Below the pieces are notes generated by a model. That model saw nothing but the letters and a program-made list of their open reading frames with translations. It did not search any database and had not been told where the DNA came from. The translations under genes were made by a program, and so were the position numbers. DNA of 64,000 bases from Acetothermia bacterium 64_32 (GTDB taxonomy: Bacteria; Bipolaricaulota; Bipolaricaulia; Bipolaricaulales; Bipolaricaulaceae): positions 35,157 to 99,156 of the forward strand of contig LGFI01000006.1 of assembly GCA_001508155.1 (NCBI GenBank), given 5' to 3'. Below, piece after piece: positions 1,242-10,921 of the stretch (its first letter is position 1; each line of letters opens with the position of its first letter).

Positions 1242-2537
1242 TCAAGGGTTCTGGTCGCGGATGAGCCTGCGCAGGCGGGCCAGTCTTTCGCGCAGGCGGG
1301 CCTCCCAGCCGACGTCCTTGGGGTGGTAGTACTCCCGACCGGAAAGGCCCGGAGGGAGGCACTCCATCTTCGCCACCCCCTCCGGGAGATCGTGAGCATA
1401 CTGATAACCCCTTCCGTAGCCAAGTTCCCGCATGGTATCCGTAACAGGGTTTCTCAGGTGTAGGGGCACCGGCTCGTCGATGGTCTCCCTGACGTCGCGC
1501 CTGGCCGCCTCGTAGGCGGTATATAGGGCGTTTGACTTGGGGGCCAAGGCCAAATAGACGGCCGCCTGGGCCAGGGCGAGTTCACATTCCGGAAGGCCCA
1601 CGAGCTCCACCGCCTGGGCGGCCGCGGCCGCAAGGCGCAGCGCGCCCGGATCGGCCAAGCCCACGTCCTCGGAAGCGATCCTTATAAGCCTCCGAGCCAG
1701 ATACCGCGGATCCTCTCCTGATTCCAGCATACGGGCCAGCCAATATAGGGTTGCATCTACGTCCGAGTTGCGGATGGACTTGTGCAGGGCGGAGATGAGG
1801 TTGTAGTGCTCCTCCCCGGCCCGGTCATAACGGGGGGCCTTCCTCCCCAGGGCCCGGGACAGCTGCTCCAGGGTGAGCTCCCCCTCCCCTTCGGCGGCCA
1901 CCGCCGTCTCCAGGGCGGTGAGGAGCCGCCGGGCATCCCCGTCGGCGTAGCGGATGAGGAAGGCCCTGGCCTCCGGGGTGAGGGAAACCCGGCCCCCGTA
2001 GCCCCGCTCGTCGGAAAGGGCGCGGGACAGGAGCTCAGCCAGCTCCTCCTCAGATAGGGGCCGGAAGACGAAGAGCTGCGCCCGGGAAAGGAGGGCCGGC
2101 CTGAGGGCGAAGGAGGGGTTCTCGGTGGTGGCGCCGATGAACAGGACCGAGCCCTCCTCAAGGTAGGGGAGGAGGACGTCCTGCTGGGCCCGGTTCCAGC
2201 GGTGGATCTCGTCCAGGAAGAGAAGATCCCGTCCCCCCGTCCTTTTCCAAAGCTCCCGGGATGCCTCCAGGGCCTTTTTGACCTCCCCGGTGGAGACTAG
2301 GGCCGCCGAGGCCCAGACGAACCTCGCCCCCAGCCGGGCGGCGATGATGCGGCCCAGGGTGGTCTTCCCCGTGCCCGGCGGCCCCCAGAAGATGAGGGCG
2401 GAAAAGCCCCCTCGCTCGATGAGGGCCCGCAGGGGGCCCTTGGGCCCCAAAAGGTGCCCCTGCCCCACCACCTCGGAGAGGTCGTGCGGCCTGAGCCGCT
2501 CTGCAAGCGGCCCCTCACCCTGCCACAGGCCCTTCAT
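1242..2537 (-). CDS. rarA: Replication-associated recombination protein A (AAA+ ATPase RarA/MgsA)
   Basis: Walker A GPPGTGKTT. The N-terminal LAERLRP and the C-terminal MgsA helical domain are typical across the full 431 aa. Confidence 0.9.
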   Translation of the reverse strand: MKGLWQGEGPLAERLRPHDLSEVVGQGHLLGPKGPLRALIERGGFSALIFWGPPGTGKTTLGRIIAARLGARFVWASAALVSTGEVKKALEASRELWKRTGGRDLLFLDEIHRWNRAQQDVLLPYLEEGSVLFIGATTENPSFALRPALLSRAQLFVFRPLSEEELAELLSRALSDERGYGGRVSLTPEARAFLIRYADGDARRLLTALETAVAAEGEGELTLEQLSRALGRKAPRYDRAGEEHYNLISALHKSIRNSDVDATLYWLARMLESGEDPRYLARRLIRIASEDVGLADPGALRLAAAAAQAVELVGLPECELALAQAAVYLALAPKSNALYTAYEAARRDVRETIDEPVPLHLRNPVTDTMRELGYGRGYQYAHDLPEGVAKMECLPPGLSGREYYHPKDVGWEARLRERLARLRRLIRDQNP

Positions 2538-2833
2538 CTCTTCCCCGCTCGCCCAAGGAGGCCTCTAAACTCCTCCTCCGTGTAGCCCTTGGGTTCCACG
2601 CCCGGGGCAAGCTCAAGGAGCATCCCGAACCGATCCTGGGGCCTCTGGGGCAGCCCTTTAGCCACCACCAGCACGTCCACATCGCTCCACAGGTTGAAAT
2701 CACCCCGTACCACCGGGCCGTAGACCCAAGCGGTCAAAGGCCCCAAGGCCCTTCGCGCCTCCACGAGGAACCTACGTGCCAGGGAAACCAGTTCCCTCTG
2801 CCGGGCAACCCTCGCCTCAATCCCCACCGGCAT
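2534..2833 (-). CDS. Minimal nucleotidyltransferase (MntA-like, DNA pol beta fold), orphan
   Basis: 99 aa with a GDFNLWSDVDVLVV nucleotidyltransferase motif. It overlaps the rarA start by 4 nt. There is no HEPN partner adjacent. Confidence 0.65.
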   Translation of the reverse strand: MPVGIEARVARQRELVSLARRFLVEARRALGPLTAWVYGPVVRGDFNLWSDVDVLVVAKGLPQRPQDRFGMLLELAPGVEPKGYTEEEFRGLLGRAGKR

Positions 2834-2925
2834 CCTCCATCGCCCCCTCCGAAGCCCAACACCACTCGAGCCTCAGCCAACGCCGGTACTCGGAAAGATC
2901 CCACATCCCGGAGGCATTTTATCCC

Positions 2926-2955
2926 TTGACAGGGCTCGGCGGGGCTTCGTAAGAT
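2926..2955 (+). promoter_or_regulatory. Sigma70-like promoter abutting the tRNA array (TTGACA, 18-nt spacer, TAAGAT)
   Basis: TTGACA lies at 2926-2931 and TAAGAT at about 2950-2955. This is 5 nt before the first tRNA 5' end at 2961. Confidence 0.4.
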
Positions 2956-2960
2956 TCGGC

Positions 2961-3033
2961 GGGCCGTTAGCTCAACAGGCAGAGCAGCGGACTCTTAATC
3001 CGCGGGTTGGGGGTTCGAGTCCTCCACGGCCCA
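2961..3033 (+). tRNA. tRNA-Lys (anticodon CTT)
   Basis: Cloverleaf read by eye: acceptor GGGCCGT/ACGGCCC, anticodon stem GCGGA/TCCGC with loop CTCTTAA, T-loop TTCGAGT. CCA is not encoded. Confidence 0.8.
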
Positions 3034-3097
3034 CAGCCAGTTGCAAGTTGACAAGTCCCAAGTCGAAAGGCATGTCGGGACTTGCGACTGGATTTTC

Positions 3098-3173
3098 GGG
3101 TCGTTAGCTCAGTTGGCAGAGCACCGGCCTTTTAAGCCGGGTGTCGCAGGTTCGATTCCTGCACGACCCACCA
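3098..3173 (+). tRNA. tRNA-Lys (anticodon TTT), CCA encoded
   Basis: Acceptor GGGTCGT/ACGACCC, anticodon loop CTTTTAA, T-loop TTCGATT, 3' ACCA. Confidence 0.8.
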
Positions 3174-3248
3174 GTCGCCGTCGTCTAGGCAGGCCTAGGA
3201 CACCGGGCTTTCAATCCGGTAACGGGGGTTCAAATCCCCCCGGCGACA
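3174..3248 (+). tRNA. tRNA-Glu (anticodon TTC)
   Basis: Acceptor GTCGCCG/CGGCGAC, anticodon loop CTTTCAA, T-loop TTCAAAT. It begins immediately after the CCA of the preceding tRNA with zero spacer. Confidence 0.75.
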
Positions 3249-3314
3249 CAAGGAAAGTCGAAGGTCCCAAGAAGCCGACTTTCGACTTGGGGCTTTTGAC
3301 TTGTAGCTGGGTTT

Positions 3315-3386
3315 GGGCGAGTAGCTCAGGGGGAGAGCATCCGGCTTACATCCGGAAGGTCAGAGGTTCAAATCCTCTCTCGCCCA
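3315..3386 (+). tRNA. tRNA-Val (anticodon TAC)
   Basis: Acceptor GGGCGAG/CTCGCCC, anticodon loop CTTACAT, T-loop TTCAAAT. Confidence 0.75.
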
Positions 3387-3448
3387 CTAGAGCCCCTGGA
3401 GGTGGTGGGGCGAGCTTGCTAAAATAGCGTGGTGCCCCAAAGAGGGGT

Positions 3449-3475
3449 CCCCGCAAAACCTGCGGTTTTGTGGGG
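3449..3475 (+). other. Stable spacer hairpin (12-bp stem CCCCGCAAAACC/GGTTTTGTGGGG, 3-nt loop) between tRNA-Val and tRNA-Asp
   Basis: Perfect inverted repeat with one G-U pair. The context is not T-rich, so it is more likely a processing structure than a terminator. Confidence 0.4.
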
Positions 3476-3482
3476 CATGAGA

Positions 3483-3561
3483 GGGGACGTGGTCTAGGCT
3501 GGACTAGGACACCGGATTGTCACTCCGGAGATCGCGGGTTCAAATCCCGTCGTCCCCGCCA
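3483..3561 (+). tRNA. tRNA-Asp (anticodon GTC), CCA encoded
   Basis: Acceptor GGGGACG/CGTCCCC, anticodon loop TTGTCAC, T-loop TTCAAAT, 3' GCCA. Confidence 0.8.
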
Positions 3562-3655
3562 AGAGCAGTCGCAAGTCGGCAAGTCCCAAGTTCATGGGGA
3601 CTTGTGGCCTAGGAATCTTTGAACTTGTGACTAGTTGACTTGCAACTGTCAGTGT

Positions 3656-3731
3656 GGCGAGGTAGCTCAGGTGGTAGAGCACGCGGCTGAAAACCGCGGT
3701 GTCCCCAGTTCGACTCTGGGCCTCGCCACCA
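3656..3731 (+). tRNA. tRNA-Phe (anticodon GAA), CCA encoded
   Basis: Acceptor GGCGAGG/CCTCGCC, anticodon loop CTGAAAA, T-loop TTCGACT, 3' ACCA. Confidence 0.8.
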
Positions 3732-3775
3732 GCATTTGACGCCCTGCTGGGGGCGGGGGTAGGCTTACCCCAGCC

Positions 3776-5110
3776 ATGGGGCAGACCGTACAGGAGATTT
3801 GGGAGCGGGCGAAGGCCCGCCTTGCCGAGGAGGTCCCACCCCCAAGCTTTGCCGCCTGGTTCTCCGACGCCACCCCCAAGGGGATCGAGGACGGGGCGTT
3901 TGTGCTGGAGGTGCCTTCCGTATTCGCCAAGGGGGGGATAGAAAGGAAATACCGGGCCCTCCTGGAGAGGGTGCTCGCTGAGGTGACGGGAAGGCAGCTT
4001 CCCATAAAGGTGGTGGTGGGCGATCAGCTCCCACCCCCTCCCCCACCCCCCACCTCCCCGGAGACCGCCCGTCGGTACCTGGGGACCTTGCCGCTGAACC
4101 CCGAGTACACCTTCGACACCTTCGTCCGGGGGAGGAACTCCCAGCTCGCCTACGCCGCCGCCGTAGCGGTGGCCGAGTCCCCGGCCCGGGCCTACAACCC
4201 CCTTTTCATCTACGGCAAGGTGGGCCTGGGGAAGACCCACCTGCTTCATGCCATCGGCAACCGGGTGCTGGCAAAGCCCGGGGACCTCACGGTGGTCTAC
4301 ACCACCTCGGAGCGGTTCGCCATCGAGCTCATCCACTCCATCGGCCAGGGCACCACCGAACAGTTTCGCTCAAAATACCGGAACGTGGACGTCCTCCTCA
4401 TCGACGACGTCCATTTCCTGCGCAACAAGGAGGGCACTCAAGAGGAGCTGTTCCACACGTTCAACGAGCTGTATGGGAACGGGAAGCAGATCGTGCTGTC
4501 CTCCGACCGCCCCCCGGACGAGCTGCAGGGGCTGCAGGACCGGCTGGTGTCCCGGTTCCGGTGGGGCTTGGTGGCGGACATCCAGCCACCGGACCTGGAG
4601 ACCAGGATCGCCATCCTCAGGGAGAAGGCCCGCCGGCGGGGCCTGGAGGTGGAGGACTCCATCCTGGAGATCATCGCCTCCCGCATCACCACCAACGTGC
4701 GGGACCTGGAAGGGGCCCTCATCCGGGCCATGGCCTATATCGAGCTCGGGGAAGGCCCCATCACCCCCAAGGTTTTGGAGGAGATCCTCCCCAAGGAGGA
4801 GACGGCCCGGCGGCTGACGGTGGAGGCGATCAAGGAGGAGGTGGCGGCCCGGTATAACGTGCCGGTGGCCGAACTCGAGGGCCCCTCCCGCAAGAAGGAG
4901 ATCGCCCAGGCCCGCCAGATCGCCATCTTCCTCGCCCGGGAGCTCACCGACTCCTCCTTCCCCGCCCTGGGCCGGGCCTTCGGCGGCCGCGACCACACCA
5001 CCATCATGCACTCCTACCAGAAGATGCAGGAACTCATCCGCCAGGTCCCCCTCCTCCGAGGGGAGATCGAAGGCCTGCGAGACGAGCTTGTGGCCAAATA
5101 CGGGAAATGA
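3776..5110 (+). CDS. dnaA: Chromosomal replication initiator protein DnaA
   Basis: Walker A GKVGLGKTHL, an AAA+ domain and a C-terminal DNA-binding domain (ARQIAIFLARELT). There is a proline-rich linker [10 protein letters not shown]. It lies only 44 nt after tRNA-Phe. Confidence 0.95.
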   Translation: MGQTVQEIWERAKARLAEEVPPPSFAAWFSDATPKGIEDGAFVLEVPSVFAKGGIERKYRALLERVLAEVTGRQLPIKVVVGDQLPPPPPPPTSPETARRYLGTLPLNPEYTFDTFVRGRNSQLAYAAAVAVAESPARAYNPLFIYGKVGLGKTHLLHAIGNRVLAKPGDLTVVYTTSERFAIELIHSIGQGTTEQFRSKYRNVDVLLIDDVHFLRNKEGTQEELFHTFNELYGNGKQIVLSSDRPPDELQGLQDRLVSRFRWGLVADIQPPDLETRIAILREKARRRGLEVEDSILEIIASRITTNVRDLEGALIRAMAYIELGEGPITPKVLEEILPKEETARRLTVEAIKEEVAARYNVPVAELEGPSRKKEIAQARQIAIFLARELTDSSFPALGRAFGGRDHTTIMHSYQKMQELIRQVPLLRGEIEGLRDELVAKYGK

Positions 5111-5111
5111 G

Positions 5112-5324
5112 TTTTCCACAGCCCCCTGGGGATGCCCCTGTGGATAACCGGCCCACGCCCTGTGGATTTCGCCCCTTTCCCCCGGACAAACCGGTGGGGA
5201 AAACTGGCGATTGTTCTTATCCCCAACGGAATTCCACCGCACAGGCCGCCCATCCACAGGTTTTCCACAAGGCTTTCCACAGCCTTGAGGGAAGATGTCG
5301 CGCGCGGTGGCGGAGTTTTCCACA
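5112..5324 (+). promoter_or_regulatory. Candidate oriC: a cluster of DnaA-box 9-mers
   Basis: TTTTCCACA occurs three times at about 5112, 5261 and 5316. A perfect TGTGGATAA is at 5139-5147. Further variants are TGTGGATTT at 5161, TTATCCCCA at 5217, CCATCCACA at 5250 and CTTTCCACA at 5273. All lie in a ~215-bp non-coding stretch. Confidence 0.6.
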
Positions 5325-5359
5325 GGTGATGTGTGTACCCTACAACAAGGACAAGGGTT

Positions 5360-5899
5360 ATGGATAAGGATGTAAGGCAGTGGTTAGCCCCCCTGGCCCG
5401 CAGGTGGGGGCTGGAGGGGGAGGTCAGGCGGCAGGGGGCGGTGTTCGCCTGGCCGGAGGCGGTGGGGGAGCAGCTGGCGAAGCTGGCGCGGGCGCTTTAT
5501 GTGGACGGGCATACCCTGCACGTGGCGGTGGCCAGTCCCGTGGTGGCCATGGAGCTGCGGCATCTGCAGGGGAAGCTGCTGGCGAGGCTCAGGGAGGTGG
5601 CGCCGGATGTCTCGGTAAAGAGGCTGCGGTTCCACGTGCGCCCCCAGGCCGTCCCGCCCCGGGGGCTGAAGGTGGAGGAGCCAAGGGAGGGTGATTGGCA
5701 GGCGGCCGAGCAGGCCGTGCCCCCCGATCTCCCCGCCGCCCTGCGGGCCCGGCTGGTCAGGATCGCGGCCTGGGCGCTGGCCCGCGATCGCGCCATCCTC
5801 GAGGCGGGGGGGCACCGCTGCCCCAGGTGTGGGGTGGCCCACCTCGGCCCGGAGGAGCTCTGCCCCCCCTGCTTTGCGGCCTGGGGTGGGGAAGGCTAG
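5360..5899 (+). CDS. DUF721/DciA-like protein with C-terminal zinc ribbon. Candidate DnaC/DnaI-antecedent helicase loader.
   Basis: Core matches the DUF721 pattern: WPEAVGEQLAKLARALYVDGHTLHVAVASPVVAMELRHLQGKLLARL. The C-terminal CPRCG...CPPCF is a zinc ribbon as in COG5512. ATG at 5360; the ORF track gives an alternative GTG at 5333. Confidence 0.65.
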   Translation: MDKDVRQWLAPLARRWGLEGEVRRQGAVFAWPEAVGEQLAKLARALYVDGHTLHVAVASPVVAMELRHLQGKLLARLREVAPDVSVKRLRFHVRPQAVPPRGLKVEEPREGDWQAAEQAVPPDLPAALRARLVRIAAWALARDRAILEAGGHRCPRCGVAHLGPEELCPPCFAAWGGEG

Positions 5900-5912: not shown

Positions 5913-6452
5913 ATGGCGATGGAAGCTACCACCGTGATCGCGCTGCGCTCGGAGGCGGCCCGCTGTGCCGTCATGGCCTGTGACGGCCAGGCCACCATGG
6001 AATCCCGGGTGGTGAAGGCGGGTGCCAGGAAGGTTCATCGCATCCATGGGGGGACGGTCCTGGCCGGTTTTGCCGGGGGGACGGCCGATGGCCTTGCGCT
6101 CCTGGAGCGGCTGGAGGGGAAGCTGAAGCAGTACGGCTCCCTCCGGCGGGCGGCGGTGGAGCTTTCTAAAGAATGGCGCACCGACCGGGCCTTGAGGCGC
6201 CTGGAGGCGGTGATCCTGGCCGCCTCGGAGGAGGCCTTGCTTCTAATCACCGGGCAGGGGGATGTGCTGGAGCCGGACGACGGGCTGGCCGGGATCGGCT
6301 CCGGCGGGGGCTATGCCCTGGCCGCCGCCCGGGCCCTGGTCCGCCACACCGACCTCCCCCCCGCTGAGGTCGCCCGAAATGCCCTTATCATCGCCTCGGA
6401 GATCGACGTCTACACCAACGACAGGATCGCATTGGAGGAGGTGCGCTGGTGA
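5913..6452 (+). CDS. hslV: ATP-dependent protease subunit HslV
   Basis: MEATTVIALR with the Thr N-terminus, plus the GGTADGLALLERLEGKL and GSGGGYALAAARAL motifs. The ORF track draws an upstream extension from 5691, which I judge spurious. Confidence 0.9.
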   Translation: MAMEATTVIALRSEAARCAVMACDGQATMESRVVKAGARKVHRIHGGTVLAGFAGGTADGLALLERLEGKLKQYGSLRRAAVELSKEWRTDRALRRLEAVILAASEEALLLITGQGDVLEPDDGLAGIGSGGGYALAAARALVRHTDLPPAEVARNALIIASEIDVYTNDRIALEEVRW

Positions 6453-7762
6453 CCCTGCCCGGCCTCACCCCCAGGGAGATCGTTCGGGAGCTGTCCCGCT
6501 ACATCGTGGGCCAGGAGGAGGCCAAGAGGGCGGTGGCCATCGCCTTAAGGAACCGCATCCGCCGGGCCGCCCTGCCCGAGGAGGTGCGGCGGGAGGTGCG
6601 CCCGAAAAACATCCTCATGATCGGCCCCACAGGGGTGGGGAAGACCGAGATCGCCCGGCGCCTCGCCCAGATCACCGACTCCCCCTTCCTCAAGGTGGAG
6701 GCCACCAAGTACACCGAAGTGGGGTACGTGGGGCGGGACGTGGAGTCCATGATCCGGGACCTGGTGGAGGTGGCGATCTCGCTGGTGCGGGCCCGGGAGG
6801 CCCGCAGGGTGGAGCGGGAGGCGGATAGGTTCGTTGAGGAAAGGCTCCTTGACGCCCTGCTTTCCGGGGCGGCAGGGGGGGAGGGGGCAAGGGAGCGCCT
6901 CAGGGAAAGGCTCCGGGCCGGGGAACTGGAGGACCAATGGGTGGAGATCCCGGTGAAGGAGTCGTTGGCCCCCCAGATAAACGTGTTCTCCGAGGCGGGG
7001 ATGGACCAGCTGGGGATAGATCTCTCTCAGCTTTTTGCGGGCTTCCCTGCCCCAAGGAGGCCCAAGCGGATGACGGTTCGGAAGGCGCGGGAGGTGCTCC
7101 GGGAGGAGGCCCTGGAGAGGCTTTTAAACATGGAGGAGGTGCGGGCCGAGGGGCTGCGCCTGGCCGAAGAGTCAGGGATCGTGTTCATCGACGAACTGGA
7201 TAAGCTCGCCTTGGGCGGGCCGGAGGAGCGGGGCGGGCCGGGGGTGTCCCGTCAGGGGGTGCAGCGGGACCTCCTGCCGCTCCTTGAGGGGACCACAGTG
7301 CGGACCCGGCACGGGACGGTGCGCACCGACAACATACTTTTCATCGCCGCCGGCGCCTTCTCCCAGGCCAAGCCCAGCGACCTCATGCCCGAGCTCCAGG
7401 GACGCCTCCCCATCCGGGTGGAGCTCCACCCTTTAACCGAGGAGCACTTCAAGCGGATCCTAGTGGAGCCGGAAGATGCCCTCACCAAGCAGTATCAAGC
7501 CCTGCTTTCCACGGAAGGGGTAGAGGTGGAGTTCACCGATGAGGCTGTAAGTGAGATCGCCCATGTAGCCGCCGAGCTCAACCGGGCCCTGGAGGACATC
7601 GGGGCGCGACGCCTGATAACCGTGATGGAACACCTGATGGAGGAGCTCTCGTTCTCCGCCGACCTGCACCGGGGGGAGAGGTTCGTCATAGACCGCAAGT
7701 ACGTGCAGGAGAGGGTTACCGGCCTGGCAGCCGACCTTGAACTCTCCCGCTACATCCTATAA
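6449..7762 (+). CDS. hslU: ATP-dependent protease ATPase subunit HslU
   Basis: IGPTGVGKTEIARRLA Walker A. Full-length HslU architecture. GTG start overlaps the hslV stop (GTGA). Confidence 0.95.
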   Translation: MTLPGLTPREIVRELSRYIVGQEEAKRAVAIALRNRIRRAALPEEVRREVRPKNILMIGPTGVGKTEIARRLAQITDSPFLKVEATKYTEVGYVGRDVESMIRDLVEVAISLVRAREARRVEREADRFVEERLLDALLSGAAGGEGARERLRERLRAGELEDQWVEIPVKESLAPQINVFSEAGMDQLGIDLSQLFAGFPAPRRPKRMTVRKAREVLREEALERLLNMEEVRAEGLRLAEESGIVFIDELDKLALGGPEERGGPGVSRQGVQRDLLPLLEGTTVRTRHGTVRTDNILFIAAGAFSQAKPSDLMPELQGRLPIRVELHPLTEEHFKRILVEPEDALTKQYQALLSTEGVEVEFTDEAVSEIAHVAAELNRALEDIGARRLITVMEHLMEELSFSADLHRGERFVIDRKYVQERVTGLAADLELSRYIL

Positions 7763-7814
7763 AAATAGCGGTAGGACGCCTTTCTTTGTGGACAACAACA
7801 TGGAGGTGACAGCC

Positions 7815-9062
7815 ATGTACAAGGGAAGGGGTTTTCTTCTCTTAACGTTCGGGATTCTTTCGATGGTCTTTCCGATTTTGGCCCAGGGAACACAGCGGGG
7901 TTTTGAGTTCTACACGCAATATCCGGCGTTGGTGATCTCCGAGGGGCGGGAGGTCTCCTTGGATGTCAAGCTCCATAACACCGGGCCTACCCCGGAGGAC
8001 GTGGTGCTTACGGTCTCCGGGCCGGAGGACTGGAACGGACGATTTGAGACCTCATCTTACCCCACTCTTCAGATAAGATCGGTACATCTCCTTCCCGGGC
8101 AGGAGGAGCCGCTCACGGTGCGGTTCAAGGCCAAGCCCCCGGAGGGCACCCCTGGTGGCGACTACGTCTTCACCTTGAGTGCCGTCACGGAGGATGGTGC
8201 CATCGAGCATTCCATCCAGGTGACCGTTACCCTGGAGGCGGAGGCCCCTCAGGAAGAGGAGGAGCCCGGGGAGGTGCTTCAGCTCCTTGTGGACTATCCC
8301 TCCCTGGAGAACGCGGCCGGAAAGGACTTCACCTTTACCATCCAGATCAAGAACCAGACCGACGAGGAGAAGGTGGTGGAGCTGTCCGGGCAGATCCCCT
8401 CCGGCTGGCGAGCCTACTTCACGCCACGCTGGGAGCAGGATACCCGCATCACCTCCATCAAGGTGGATGCCAACAGCACGGAGAACATCCGGTTTGTTCT
8501 GACCCCTCCTTACATGGTGCAAAAGGGCGACTACCCCATCCGGTTCATCGCCCGGGCCGGGGATTACGAGGCCGCCTTGGACCTGAAGGCGGTGGTCACC
8601 GGGAACTATGACCTGCAACTTGCCAGTGAGGCGGAGATCACCGGGGCCGGGGACACCTGGAACATCAAGGCGGTGGAGGGGAAAGAGCGGCACTTCACCC
8701 TTTATCTTTACAACGGCCTTCCCTCCAACCCCACCTCAGCCCCGGTGACGAACATCAGGTTCTACGCCACCAAGCCGGAGGGTTGGGAGGTGGAGTTCAA
8801 GCCTGAGACGGTGGAGTCCTTGCCGCCCACCCTCAGTGCCGCGGACCTGGCCAAGGTGGACGTGGTCATCACCCCGCCGGAGCGGGCCATCCCCGGGGAC
8901 TATCAGATCACCATTAACGCCTCCGGCCGGGAGGACCACGCCTCGGCCCAGCTGCGGGTGACCGTTGGTGCTTCCATGGGCTGGGGCTGGGTCGGGGTGG
9001 GGGTGGTGGTGTTCGTGGTGGCCGCCCTCACCGGGGTGTTCGTCCGCCTGGGGAGGAGGTAA
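7815..9062 (+). CDS. Secreted repeat protein with C-terminal TM anchor (NEW3/NPCBM-associated-like domains), ABC-2-transporter associated
   Basis: Signal peptide [25 protein letters not shown]. Repeated segments of ~100 aa. C-terminal hydrophobic anchor [16 protein letters not shown]. It is the first gene of an operon with an ABC ATPase and permease. A GGAGGTG RBS lies before the ATG at 7815. Confidence 0.55.
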
Positions 9063-9064
9063 GG

Positions 9065-9985
9065 GTGATGGTCGAGGCCCAGGGGCTCAAGAAGTCCTAC
9101 GGCCCGGTACAGGCGGTGGAGGGGCTGGACCTTCGGGTACAGGAGGGGGAGATCTACGGCCTTCTTGGGCCCAACGGCTCGGGGAAGACCACCACCATCC
9201 TGATGCTCCTCGGCCTCACCGAGCCCTCGGCCGGCCGGGTCCAAGTGGCGGGCTTCAACCCCACCCGGGAGCCCCTCAAGGTGAAGCGGGTGGTGGGGTA
9301 CCTCCCGGAGAATGTAGGCTTCTACGACGATCTCACCGCGCGGGAGAACCTCCGCTACATCGCCCGCCTGAACGGGATCCCGGACCGGGATTCAAAGAAA
9401 CGGATCGAGGAGGTCCTGGAGCAGGTGGGGCTTTCGGAGGTGGCCGACCGCCCGGTGGGCACCTACTCCCGGGGGATGCGTCAGCGGCTGGGGATAGCCG
9501 ACGTGCTCGTCAAGGAGCCGCGGCTTGCCATCCTGGATGAGCCCACCACCGGGATCGACCCGGAGGGGGCGAGCCAGATCCTGGACATGATCGTTAGGAT
9601 GCGAAACGAGCGGGGGATGACCATCCTGCTTTCCTCGCACCTGCTCCACCAGGTGCAGCGGGTATGCGACCGGGTGGGGATCATGCACCGGGGGAGGCTG
9701 GTGGCGGAGGGCACGGTGGACGAGCTTTCCGCCAGGACCTCCGGGGAGGGGCTGGAGTTCGAGGCCCAGGTGCGGGGGCTGAGCCCTGAGCTGGTGGCCG
9801 CCCTTAAGGGGCTGGATGGGGTGCGGGAGGTGGTTGCCCAAGGGGAGCGCCTGCGGATCCTGGCGGAGGTGGACGTGCGTTCCGCCGTGGCCCGCACCGT
9901 CCTGGAGAAGGGGGCGGAGCTCCTCGAGCTGCGCCAGCGCGCCTTCACCTTGGAGGAGATCTACCTCCGCTATTTCCAGGGGTGA
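9065..9985 (+). CDS. ABC transporter ATP-binding protein (ABC-2/NatA-like)
   Basis: Walker [10 protein letters not shown], signature [12 protein letters not shown], Walker [14 protein letters not shown]-loop SSHLL. Confidence 0.9.
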
Positions 9986-9991
9986 TCCTAA

Positions 9992-10921
9992 ATGAGGGTG
10001 GTATTCTGGAAGGAACTGGCGGACTACTTCGGCAGCAAGCGGTTCATCATCCTGTTCTTCCTCATCCTGATCGTGGCCGGGGCTTCGGCGTATCTTGCCA
10101 GCCAATCCCTGCGGGAGAGCCCTCCCCAGGACACCTCGTACGTTTATCTTGATCTCTTCACCCAGTCCTCCGGGGGCATGCCCTCTTTCCTTTCCTTTTT
10201 GGCCTTCTTCGGCCCCCTGATCGGGGTCCTCCTTGGGTTTGACGCCGTGAACTCGGAGTTCTCCCGGGGCACGGTTTCGCGGGTCCTCGCCCAGCCCATC
10301 TACCGGGACTCCTGGATCAACGGGAAGTTCCTGGCCGGGCTGGCCACGCTGGCCCTGGCCCTGGCCGGGATCATCCTCATCATCTTCGGGCTTGGGCTTT
10401 ATGCCCTGGGCTTCCCCCCGGACGGGGGGGAGCTTTCCCGCATGTTCACCTTCTTTGTGATCGGGCTCATATACCTTGGTTTTTGGCTCGCCTTGGGGAT
10501 CCTGTTTTCGGTGCTTTTCCGGCAGGCGGCGAGCTCCGCCCTGGCCTCCATCGCCGTCTGGCTTTTCTTCACCTTGTTTTTGTACATGGCGGCCGGGCTG
10601 ATCGCCGACCAGGTGGCCCCGGTGAGCCCTACCTCCCCGGCCCAGGTGTGGACGCGGAACGAGGAGATCCGCGATCTTGTGCTCCGCTTCTCCCCGGTGG
10701 CCCTGTTCGAGGAGGCCACAAGCGCCATCCTCATCCCCAGCTGGCGGGGTCTGGGGCTCGCCCAGCTCCTCACCCAGCGGGACATCCCCACCAACCCCCT
10801 GCCCTTGGGGCAGTCCCTCCTCATCGTGTGGCCGCAGCTGGTGAGCCTTATCGCCCTGACCTCGGTCTGCTTTGGCATCTCCTATGTGATCTTCATGCGC
10901 CGCGAGATCCGGTCCCTGTGA
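9992..10921 (+). CDS. ABC-2 family transporter permease
   Basis: Six predicted TM segments and the N-terminal MRVVFWKELADYFGSKRF typical of ABC-2 permeases. Confidence 0.75.
   Translation: MRVVFWKELADYFGSKRFIILFFLILIVAGASAYLASQSLRESPPQDTSYVYLDLFTQSSGGMPSFLSFLAFFGPLIGVLLGFDAVNSEFSRGTVSRVLAQPIYRDSWINGKFLAGLATLALALAGIILIIFGLGLYALGFPPDGGELSRMFTFFVIGLIYLGFWLALGILFSVLFRQAASSALASIAVWLFFTLFLYMAAGLIADQVAPVSPTSPAQVWTRNEEIRDLVLRFSPVALFEEATSAILIPSWRGLGLAQLLTQRDIPTNPLPLGQSLLIVWPQLVSLIALTSVCFGISYVIFMRREIRSL

Follow-up and report, generated by a model that had tools for sequence, protein, structure and literature searches.

The question raised by this locus is where a bacterium of the phylum Bipolaricaulota begins to replicate its chromosome. 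The DNA concerned, hereafter the window, is a stretch of 64,000 nucleotides from Acetothermia bacterium 64_32, in which the replication initiator gene dnaA is followed by a 249-nt spacer packed with DnaA boxes and then by dciA, a gene of a helicase-loader family. In the literature searched, we found no description of an origin for Bipolaricaulota or Acetothermia, and the paper on the closed Bipolaricaulota genome (Candidatus Bipolaricaulis anaerobius Ran1) makes no mention of dnaA, an origin or skew (PMC6092417). We propose, on the basis of sequence comparison, that the spacer between dnaA and dciA, from 5111 to about 5376, is the chromosomal origin (oriC) of this bacterium, continuous and dependent on DnaA, and we put the probability of this reading at roughly 0.85. 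The original prediction, made from the letters of the window, had already placed a candidate oriC downstream of dnaA with a tRNA array and not dnaN as its flank; the uniqueness of the boxes, a local G-C minimum, phylum-wide conservation and a box-spacer-trio module support that placement. The extent given then, 5111-5330, stands at its start and falls short at its end, because the feature continues to about 5376 with a trio-like element, a stretch richer in AT and an eleventh site.

DnaA boxes in the spacer

Exact matches to the consensus TTWTCCACA occur four times in 64 kb, all of them in the spacer, against an expected 0.43, and a count of four was reached in 0 of 100 shuffles. When one mismatch is allowed, 6 of the 13 sites in the window lie in 5112-5367 (Poisson P 7e-13 against the background density); when two are allowed, these 256 bp hold 10 sites against 0.47 expected (P 9e-11) and form the densest 260-bp stretch of the window. 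Site density exceeds the background about 200-fold with one mismatch and about 20-fold with two, and the spacer feature is real and above chance. At least eight DnaA-box-like 9-mers had been claimed directly after the dnaA stop, including three exact TTTTCCACA and one perfect TGTGGATAA; our count of 10 bears out the former, and the exact sites were reproduced at 5112, 5261 and 5316 and the perfect one at 5139-5147. A similar density of such 9-mers elsewhere, named at the time as a reason to abandon the origin, is ruled out for the window, though this scope is 64 kb and not the genome. The initiator gene and the boxes are as follows.

3776-5110, plus strand: dnaA, replication initiator, 444 aa (TIGR00362, 504 bits against a cutoff of 344; Pfam DnaA_N, Bac_DnaA and Bac_DnaA_C, with AAA+ and C-terminal HTH domains)
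5112-5120, plus strand: exact DnaA box TTTTCCACA, next to the stop codon of dnaA; kept in L084 and L001
5139-5147, minus strand: DnaA box TTATCCACA (top strand TGTGGATAA), perfect consensus; position kept in 8 of 8 window-clade sequences
5161-5169, minus strand: DnaA box AAATCCACA, 2 mismatches; a TGTGGA/TGGGGA core at this column in 8 of 8 relatives
5195-5203, minus strand: weak DnaA box TTTTCCCCA, 2 mismatches
5217-5225, plus strand: DnaA box TTATCCCCA, 1 mismatch; opens the plus-oriented series, TCC core conserved
5250-5281, plus strand: head-to-tail three-box array of CCATCCACA (5250), TTTTCCACA (5261) and CTTTCCACA (5273), starts 11-12 bp apart; repeat family D2
5316-5324, plus strand: last plus-oriented DnaA box TTTTCCACA, exact, 43 bp after the previous box start; position present in 8 of 8 relatives
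5359-5367, minus strand: DnaA box TTATCCATA, 1 mismatch; overlaps the dciA ATG

The 10 or 11 boxes stand in a fixed layout: one plus box at the dnaA stop precedes three minus boxes (5139, 5161, 5195), and these are followed by five plus boxes (5217, 5250, 5261, 5273, 5316). In an alignment of eight window-clade sequences, the three-box array is among the best-conserved blocks of the spacer. The box at 5316 is our proposed anchor for unwinding, and the spacing of 42-43 bp, start to start, that separates it from the preceding box is also found in L003, L004, L007 and L022. The inverted box at 5359-5367 is weakly conserved, its L001 counterpart being TTATACATA, and for this reason may be a by-product of the dciA coding sequence.

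An origin should carry several boxes that its cognate DnaA can read. The window DnaA is full-length. The closest solved structure to it is that of B. subtilis DnaA on the basal unwinding system (BUS; 8BTG, 407 bits), and when domain IV is aligned with E. coli 1J1V, the motif ARQ...P..G..FGGRDHTT..H is found to be preserved. This motif holds what we take to be the base-contacting residues of E. coli DnaA, namely Arg399, Pro423, Asp433, His434, Thr435 and His439. Because these domain IV contacts are preserved, the window DnaA is expected to recognise canonical boxes such as the 10 sites in the spacer.

Conservation across the phylum

The window was compared with 23 genome loci (L001-L023) and about 30 metagenome loci, all from one phylum. 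Identical DnaA is encoded on DMDO01000013.1 (metagenome-assembled genome, MAG, GCA_003445465.1) and on a JGI metagenome contig, and, small indels aside, both contigs match the window at 99.9% identity; in the nearest species representatives (Candidatus Bipolaricaulota, Bipolaricaulaceae, Acetothermia), DnaA identity is 84%, 72% and 52-65%. The order tRNA array, dnaA, box cluster, (dciA), hslV, hslU recurs in most related loci with enough flank, and gene order and box layout persist in relatives whose DnaA identity is as low as 55%. The linkage of the spacer, 3' of dnaA and 5' of dciA, is thus conserved phylum-wide, as would be expected of an origin tied to dnaA and origin-proximal genes. The spacers share a plan that opens with minus boxes, in many cases two of them 12 bp apart and a third about 42 bp on; plus boxes with a tight pair follow, then the last plus box 42-43 bp on, a spacer of 14-20 nt and a CTACTAC.. 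run. In the eight-sequence alignment, 59% of the box and trio columns are conserved against 22% of the other spacer columns (Fisher P 4e-9).

This pattern bears on the notion that the spacer encodes a small protein or a structured RNA and that the 9-mers are incidental. Two open reading frames (ORFs), 5107-5367 and 5132-5329, of 86 and 65 aa, do span the spacer, and its RNA fold is somewhat better than that of shuffles (z -2.6). Conservation, however, is limited to 9-mer islands, on which ground the small ORFs were rejected; the lengths between the islands vary among relatives, and spurious ORFs are common at 65% GC. A known RNA was likewise rejected, as Rfam at gathering thresholds yields no family other than the six tRNAs in the whole window, and we attribute the fold signal to pairing between oppositely oriented boxes (inverted repeat I17). 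We regard a coding or RNA function in place of an origin as barely credible.

A sub-lineage of three loci (L083, L085, L088) carries boxes that are all of the TCCCCA type, with 7-8 such sites against 0-1 TCCACA per locus within about 300 nt past the dnaA stop, at homologous positions. The box sequence has changed here while the positions have been kept, which argues strongly that the positions, as seen in these alignments, are selected as protein-binding sites. The sub-lineage may represent a case of co-evolution between initiator and site. In the DnaA proteins of the same three loci, the known DNA-contact residues are unchanged, and immediately ahead of the conserved Arg, LVHARQ stands in place of IAQARQ.

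Some 24 loci share the continuous form of the window, and about 18 are bipartite (L009, L010, L012, L013, L021 and L093-L107, compared over 600 nt before and 450 nt after dnaA). The bipartite loci have 4-6 boxes between tRNA-Phe and dnaA and, downstream of dnaA, weak boxes and a very clear CTACTAC.. run; many of them lack dciA between dnaA and hslV, and some keep it. In a neighbour-joining DnaA tree, the five bipartite loci that come from the genome collection group together in a single clade, which is nested among the continuous loci. Given such relatives, the window could in principle hold a bipartite origin like those of B. subtilis, H. pylori and this sister clade, with 5111-5376 as the unwinding half; a second cluster would then be needed upstream of dnaA or of the tRNA array. 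No box with two mismatches or fewer occurs in 2667-3775, however, and only one in 2500-3790; the 44-nt gap between tRNA-Phe and dnaA is filled by a promoter-like element; and the boxes that the bipartite clade splits across dnaA stand together downstream in the window. We therefore consider the window origin continuous, given that 2667-3775 is free of boxes, and a bipartite origin very improbable.

Homologues of DnaA with 52-54% identity, other neighbours and no box cluster nearby were also observed (L015, L017, L018, L023), and one MAG (L017, L019) has both this box-less type and the main type of dnaA. From their sequences, the box-less homologues may be paralogues present in part of the phylum.

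The predicted unwinding region

Between the last plus box and the start of dciA lies the stretch that we propose to be unwound.

5326-5376, no strand assigned: proposed unwinding region, comprising a spacer, the conserved trio-like element CCCTACAAC (5340-5358) and the part of the dnaA-dciA spacer that is richest in AT and least stable

Its GC content is 43% against 60% in the box-bearing part (5111-5325) and 60-65% in the surrounding DNA. It coincides with the least stable 50-bp stretch of 5101-5400 (z 2.8 relative to the window), which adjoins the last box on the 3' side. The region also takes in the ribosome-binding site (AAGGA) and the ATG of dciA. After the box at 5316 come a 15-nt spacer and then CCCTACAACAAGGACAAGG, with CTA at 5340-5342, and the stretch following this box carries a CCCTACAACAAGGACAAG tail. 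In the BUS, a spacer of about 10-16 bp separates the box from its nearest trio, 3'-GAT-5', which reads CTA on the other strand; the CTA that stands 15 nt past box 5316-5324 shares this feature. The CCCTACAAC element is invariant in the window, L001, L002 and L014.

Relatives display the module more fully: a box, 14-20 nt and then CTACTACTA.. ahead of the next gene. At least 34 related loci have CTAC[TA]AC at the corresponding position, and runs of trios immediately precede the next gene as CTACTACTACTA in L022, CTACTACTT in L003-L005 and CTACAACTACTGCTA in L014. The DnaA-trio of B. subtilis is given as 5'-TAGTAGAAGTAATAGTA-3', and in T. maritima three TAG repeats are essential (PMC10316083); CTACTACTA is the complement of both the B. 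subtilis DnaA-trio and the T. maritima TAG repeats. Two Firmicute dnaA-dnaN spacers, L069 with TTATCCACA..GGCC CTACTAGTACTT followed by AT-rich DNA and dnaN, and L025 with ..CACAGGCC CTATTATAACTACTACTA.., have the box and trios in the same orientation as the Bipolaricaulota loci.

We scored these elements with our own implementation of the BUS rule (a box with two mismatches or fewer, then no more than 16 bp of spacer, then three or more NAN triplets on the strand that is bound; Pelliciari et al. 2021, PMC8287927). At the homologous plus-strand position, with CTACTAC.. on the dnaA-sense strand, the rule holds in L005, L007, L009 and L022, and several other loci have a clear CTACTAC run just past the 16-nt limit. 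In the window, it holds from the inverted box at 5359-5367, where 3 nt are followed by the five NAN triplets TAC AAC AAG GAC AAG (5344-5358, top strand). Whether box 5316 or box 5359 is taken as the anchor, the same 35 bp are indicated.

Strand asymmetry

Within the window, the cumulative G-C curve reaches its lowest point at 5284, among the clustered boxes, and this point stays where it is when 6.2 kb of additional left flank from the same species is joined on. A minimum of GC skew elsewhere in the replicon had been named in advance as a finding that would speak against the origin; for the local part of that question, the position is upheld over 70 kb, with the skew seen locally only. The minimum of L001 is found 170 nt past the dnaA stop, and those of L004, L009 and L011 are no more than about 1 kb from that codon. 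The skew of the right flank is positive in 15 of 15 loci. That of dnaA itself is negative in 14 of 15 although the gene is on the plus strand, as expected if dnaA sits just left of the origin. The minus strand carries most of the genes to the left of the spacer, and the plus strand most of those in the 10 kb next to it on the right.

Weighing a probable origin against a regulatory site

Several observations weigh against an origin at this place. The skew covers 70 kb only, and a deeper minimum elsewhere in the replicon is possible; likewise, a competing box cluster at the dnaN locus of the organism is possible, the evidence being limited to the dnaA locus. On the right flank as a whole, genes are only modestly biased towards the plus strand (59%). 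The unwinding element is only moderately AT-rich at 43% GC, and about 0.6% of window positions are less stable. After box 5316, the strict BUS rule fails, since the run CTA CAA CAA GGA is degenerate and has one canonical triplet; in the window, the rule holds only from the weakly conserved inverted box 5359, which is not on the strand predicted by homology.

Some of these points would also suit a different explanation, namely that the cluster is a DnaA-binding regulatory or titration site, comparable to the non-origin clusters of B. subtilis or to E. coli datA, which controls dnaA or dciA-hslVU or buffers DnaA while replication begins elsewhere, for example beside dnaN. One paper describes DnaA-box clusters outside oriC that regulate neighbouring genes (PMC3245932), and the cluster in the window is immediately upstream of dciA, with one box overlapping the ATG of that gene; the weak canonical trio run and the confinement of the evidence to the dnaA locus, as opposed to the whole genome or the dnaN locus, fit this explanation as well. 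However, the local G-C minimum lies inside the cluster both in the window and in L001, relatives hold a complete box-spacer-CTACTACTA module oriented as in proven origins, and the number of boxes, the two opposed arrays and the fixed spacing exceed what an operator needs. Origin and regulatory roles are, moreover, compatible with each other. A site that is regulatory and not an origin thus appears unlikely to us, and we retain the spacer as the predicted oriC.

Genes around the predicted origin

Downstream of the predicted oriC, the genes had been described as a DciA-like gene and hslVU, and profile searches agree.

5360-5899, plus strand: dciA (DUF721), helicase-loader family, 179 aa (PF05258, E 2.6e-16, 60 bits against a cutoff of 24, residues 5-91)
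5913-6452, plus strand: hslV (NF003964, 227 bits)
6449-7762, plus strand: hslU (TIGR00390, 565 bits)

The limits of hslV and hslU follow the gene calls of L082. The first gene of the three belongs to the DciA family by sequence, and a loader role is predicted from family membership. Past its DUF721 domain, the C-terminus (5801-5899) contains CPRC...CPPC (CxxC...CxxC), with the look of a zinc ribbon; we found neither zinc nor Bipolaricaulota mentioned in the DciA diversity preprint. On an NCBI MAG contig of the same species (L081, 12865-13143), about 320 extra nt lie inside hslU and split the gene. Directly after hslU is a gene for a 441-aa protein with three NPCBM-associated/NEW3 Ig-like domains (7737-9062), followed by an ABC-2 transporter pair (9065-10921), and the same genes follow in same-species contigs.

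The canonical dnaA-oriC-dnaN arrangement is not found here: as claimed earlier, dnaN lies outside the window. When the window, translated in all six frames, and the regions up to 10 kb from dnaA in L001-L023 were searched with a profile built from 41 DnaN sequences, no match at E <=10 was obtained, and a Pfam scan of ten DnaN-sized ORFs of the window revealed no DnaN. With the same profile, 41 DnaN-like ORFs were found among 57 non-Bipolaricaulota loci (L024-L080). Because none occurs within 10 kb in 23 genome loci and the profile finds 41 elsewhere, the absence of dnaN beside dnaA is, by this comparison, characteristic of the phylum as a whole and not the result of a rearrangement at one locus. 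Neither recF nor gyrB was found among the approximately 40 window ORFs scanned with Pfam/NCBIfam, about 27 ORFs, mostly in 35-64 kb, being outside that scan; the annotated ORFs (about 40) are housekeeping genes only, including rarA, cmk, rpsA, ychF, sucD, rsmH and ftsI. According to a review, dnaA is the usual neighbour of an oriC and dnaN an occasional one, and origins can be continuous or bipartite (PMC4285127), so an oriC without a dnaN neighbour is not unusual. In 15 of 23 phyla, dciA is located within a dnaA-dnaN-recF-dciA-gyrB cluster, between recF and gyrB (PMC5109545). The gene context of the window looks like this ancestral arrangement, dnaA-[oriC]-dnaN-recF-dciA-gyrB, from which dnaN and recF would have gone.

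Upstream of dnaA, the features are the following.

1242-2537, minus strand: rarA/mgsA
2534-2833, minus strand: small nucleotidyltransferase ORF
2926-2955, plus strand: putative sigma-70-like promoter TTGACA-18-TAAGAT before the tRNA array (consensus scan, 10 of 12 matches)
2961-3731, plus strand: six tRNA genes, Lys-CTT, Lys-TTT, Glu-TTC, Val-TAC, Asp-GTC and Phe-GAA (ARAGORN; six matches to Rfam RF00005)
3736-3765, plus strand: candidate dnaA promoter TTGACG (3736-3741), 18 nt, TAGGCT (3760-3765), recognised by eye and under the scan threshold

The six-tRNA array and the 44-nt gap before dnaA (3732-3775, from tRNA-Phe to the ATG) are as had been predicted; in L002, the gap is 13 nt. The full array stands in the same order upstream of dnaA in L001, L002, L004, L005, L010, L012, L014 and L022, while in L009 a tRNA-Ala replaces the two Lys genes, and L006, L013 and L020 have partial arrays. 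At the position homologous to 3736-3765, L022 and L005 have a scan-positive promoter, TTGACC-18-TATCCT, and dnaA probably has its own promoter, as far as the sequences indicate. The -10-like TAGGCT ends 8-10 nt before the dnaA ATG (window 3736-3775, where the distance is 10 nt; L001 9958-10000) and there is no Shine-Dalgarno sequence, on which grounds the dnaA mRNA may be leaderless. More distant relatives have a dnaA leader of about 20 nt (21-28 nt from the end of the -10 element to the ATG) with a purine-rich, Shine-Dalgarno-like GAGGGG or AAGGGA. Our scan found no convincing terminator between tRNA-Phe and dnaA or after dnaA; since a promoter-like site precedes the array and no terminator intervenes, read-through transcription of dnaA from the tRNA operon, the co-transcription raised earlier as a possibility, is possible.

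Within the array, the inter-tRNA spacers 3035-3097, 3250-3314 and 3562-3655 contain hairpin-forming repeats that are related to one another and have CAAGTC...GACTTG and AAGTCCCAAGT as their basis; the arms at 3566-3594 and 3620-3648, for instance, are 83% complementary. These repeats could be processing signals or small repeat elements. In the spacer between tRNA-Val and tRNA-Asp (3439-3475), a palindromic indel of about 41 nt separates strains or assemblies of the same species.

Discussion

In its overall design, the predicted origin invites comparison with the incC/BUS part of B. subtilis oriC. Both lie immediately 3' of dnaA, and both have plus boxes, a short spacer, trios (CTACTA.. in the dnaA sense) and AT-richer DNA before the next gene (PMC8287927, PMC10316083); the DnaA of B. 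subtilis is also the best solved homologue of the window DnaA. The window differs in having dciA and not dnaN downstream, in lacking an upstream cluster like incA/B, in its degenerate trio run, in an unwinding region that overlaps a gene start and in belonging to a genome of 65% GC. The bipartite origins of B. subtilis, H. pylori and Mollicutes find their likeness in a monophyletic group of Bipolaricaulota with boxes on both sides of dnaA and a trio run downstream, whereas the window has no boxes upstream of dnaA and is continuous.

The oriC of E. coli includes accessory elements, namely IHF sites and GATC clusters. Like the window, it has two opposed box arrays with close head-to-tail sites and an unwinding element outside one array (PMC4285127); unlike the window origin, it lies apart from dnaA in another gene context (PMC4285127, PMC8287927). 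T. maritima, of a deep-branching lineage, has a similarly compact origin, in which TAG repeats of the unwinding element are essential and opposed boxes are tolerated (PMC10316083), and relatives of the window carry (CTA)3-4, which is (TAG)3-4 on the other strand. The T. maritima DnaA reads a non-canonical 12-mer, whereas the boxes and the DnaA contacts of the window are canonical. With the ancestral dnaA-dnaN-recF-dciA-gyrB-gyrA cluster, the window shares an origin-proximal, dnaA-linked dciA (PF05258; PMC5109545); it differs in that dciA directly abuts oriC and is followed by hslVU, and in that a tRNA array replaces rpmH-rnpA upstream of dnaA.

From these likenesses, a course of initiation can be proposed. 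DnaA, through the canonical base-contact residues of its domain IV, would recognise the boxes, and ATP-DnaA would oligomerise along the box arrays and, starting from the last box, extend along one of the two strands of the trio-like element; such an extension might also start from the inverted box at 5359. The extension would open 5326-5376, where DnaB would be loaded with the help of the DciA encoded next door, and two replication forks would then depart in opposite directions. Nothing in this mode of working is at odds with current models, and the origin is of a known bacterial type; the finding thus leaves ideas on how origins work unchanged.

What it supplies is an origin position for a candidate phylum without a cultured member. 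This position may be used for orienting and checking closed metagenome-assembled genomes and for estimating growth rates from metagenome coverage (peak-to-trough), and it allows the generality of the box-plus-trio unwinding module to be tested in a deep-branching, high-GC lineage. More speculatively, and we hold this to be doubtful, DnaA occupancy and opening of the origin could directly gate the expression of dciA and so couple initiation to the supply of the loader, and the natural origin variants of the phylum could serve as a comparative system for the co-evolution of origin and DnaA. If this is true, that system would comprise continuous and dnaA-split forms, a sub-lineage in which TCCACA has become TCCCCA, and trio runs that range from (CTA)4 to CTA CAA CAA.

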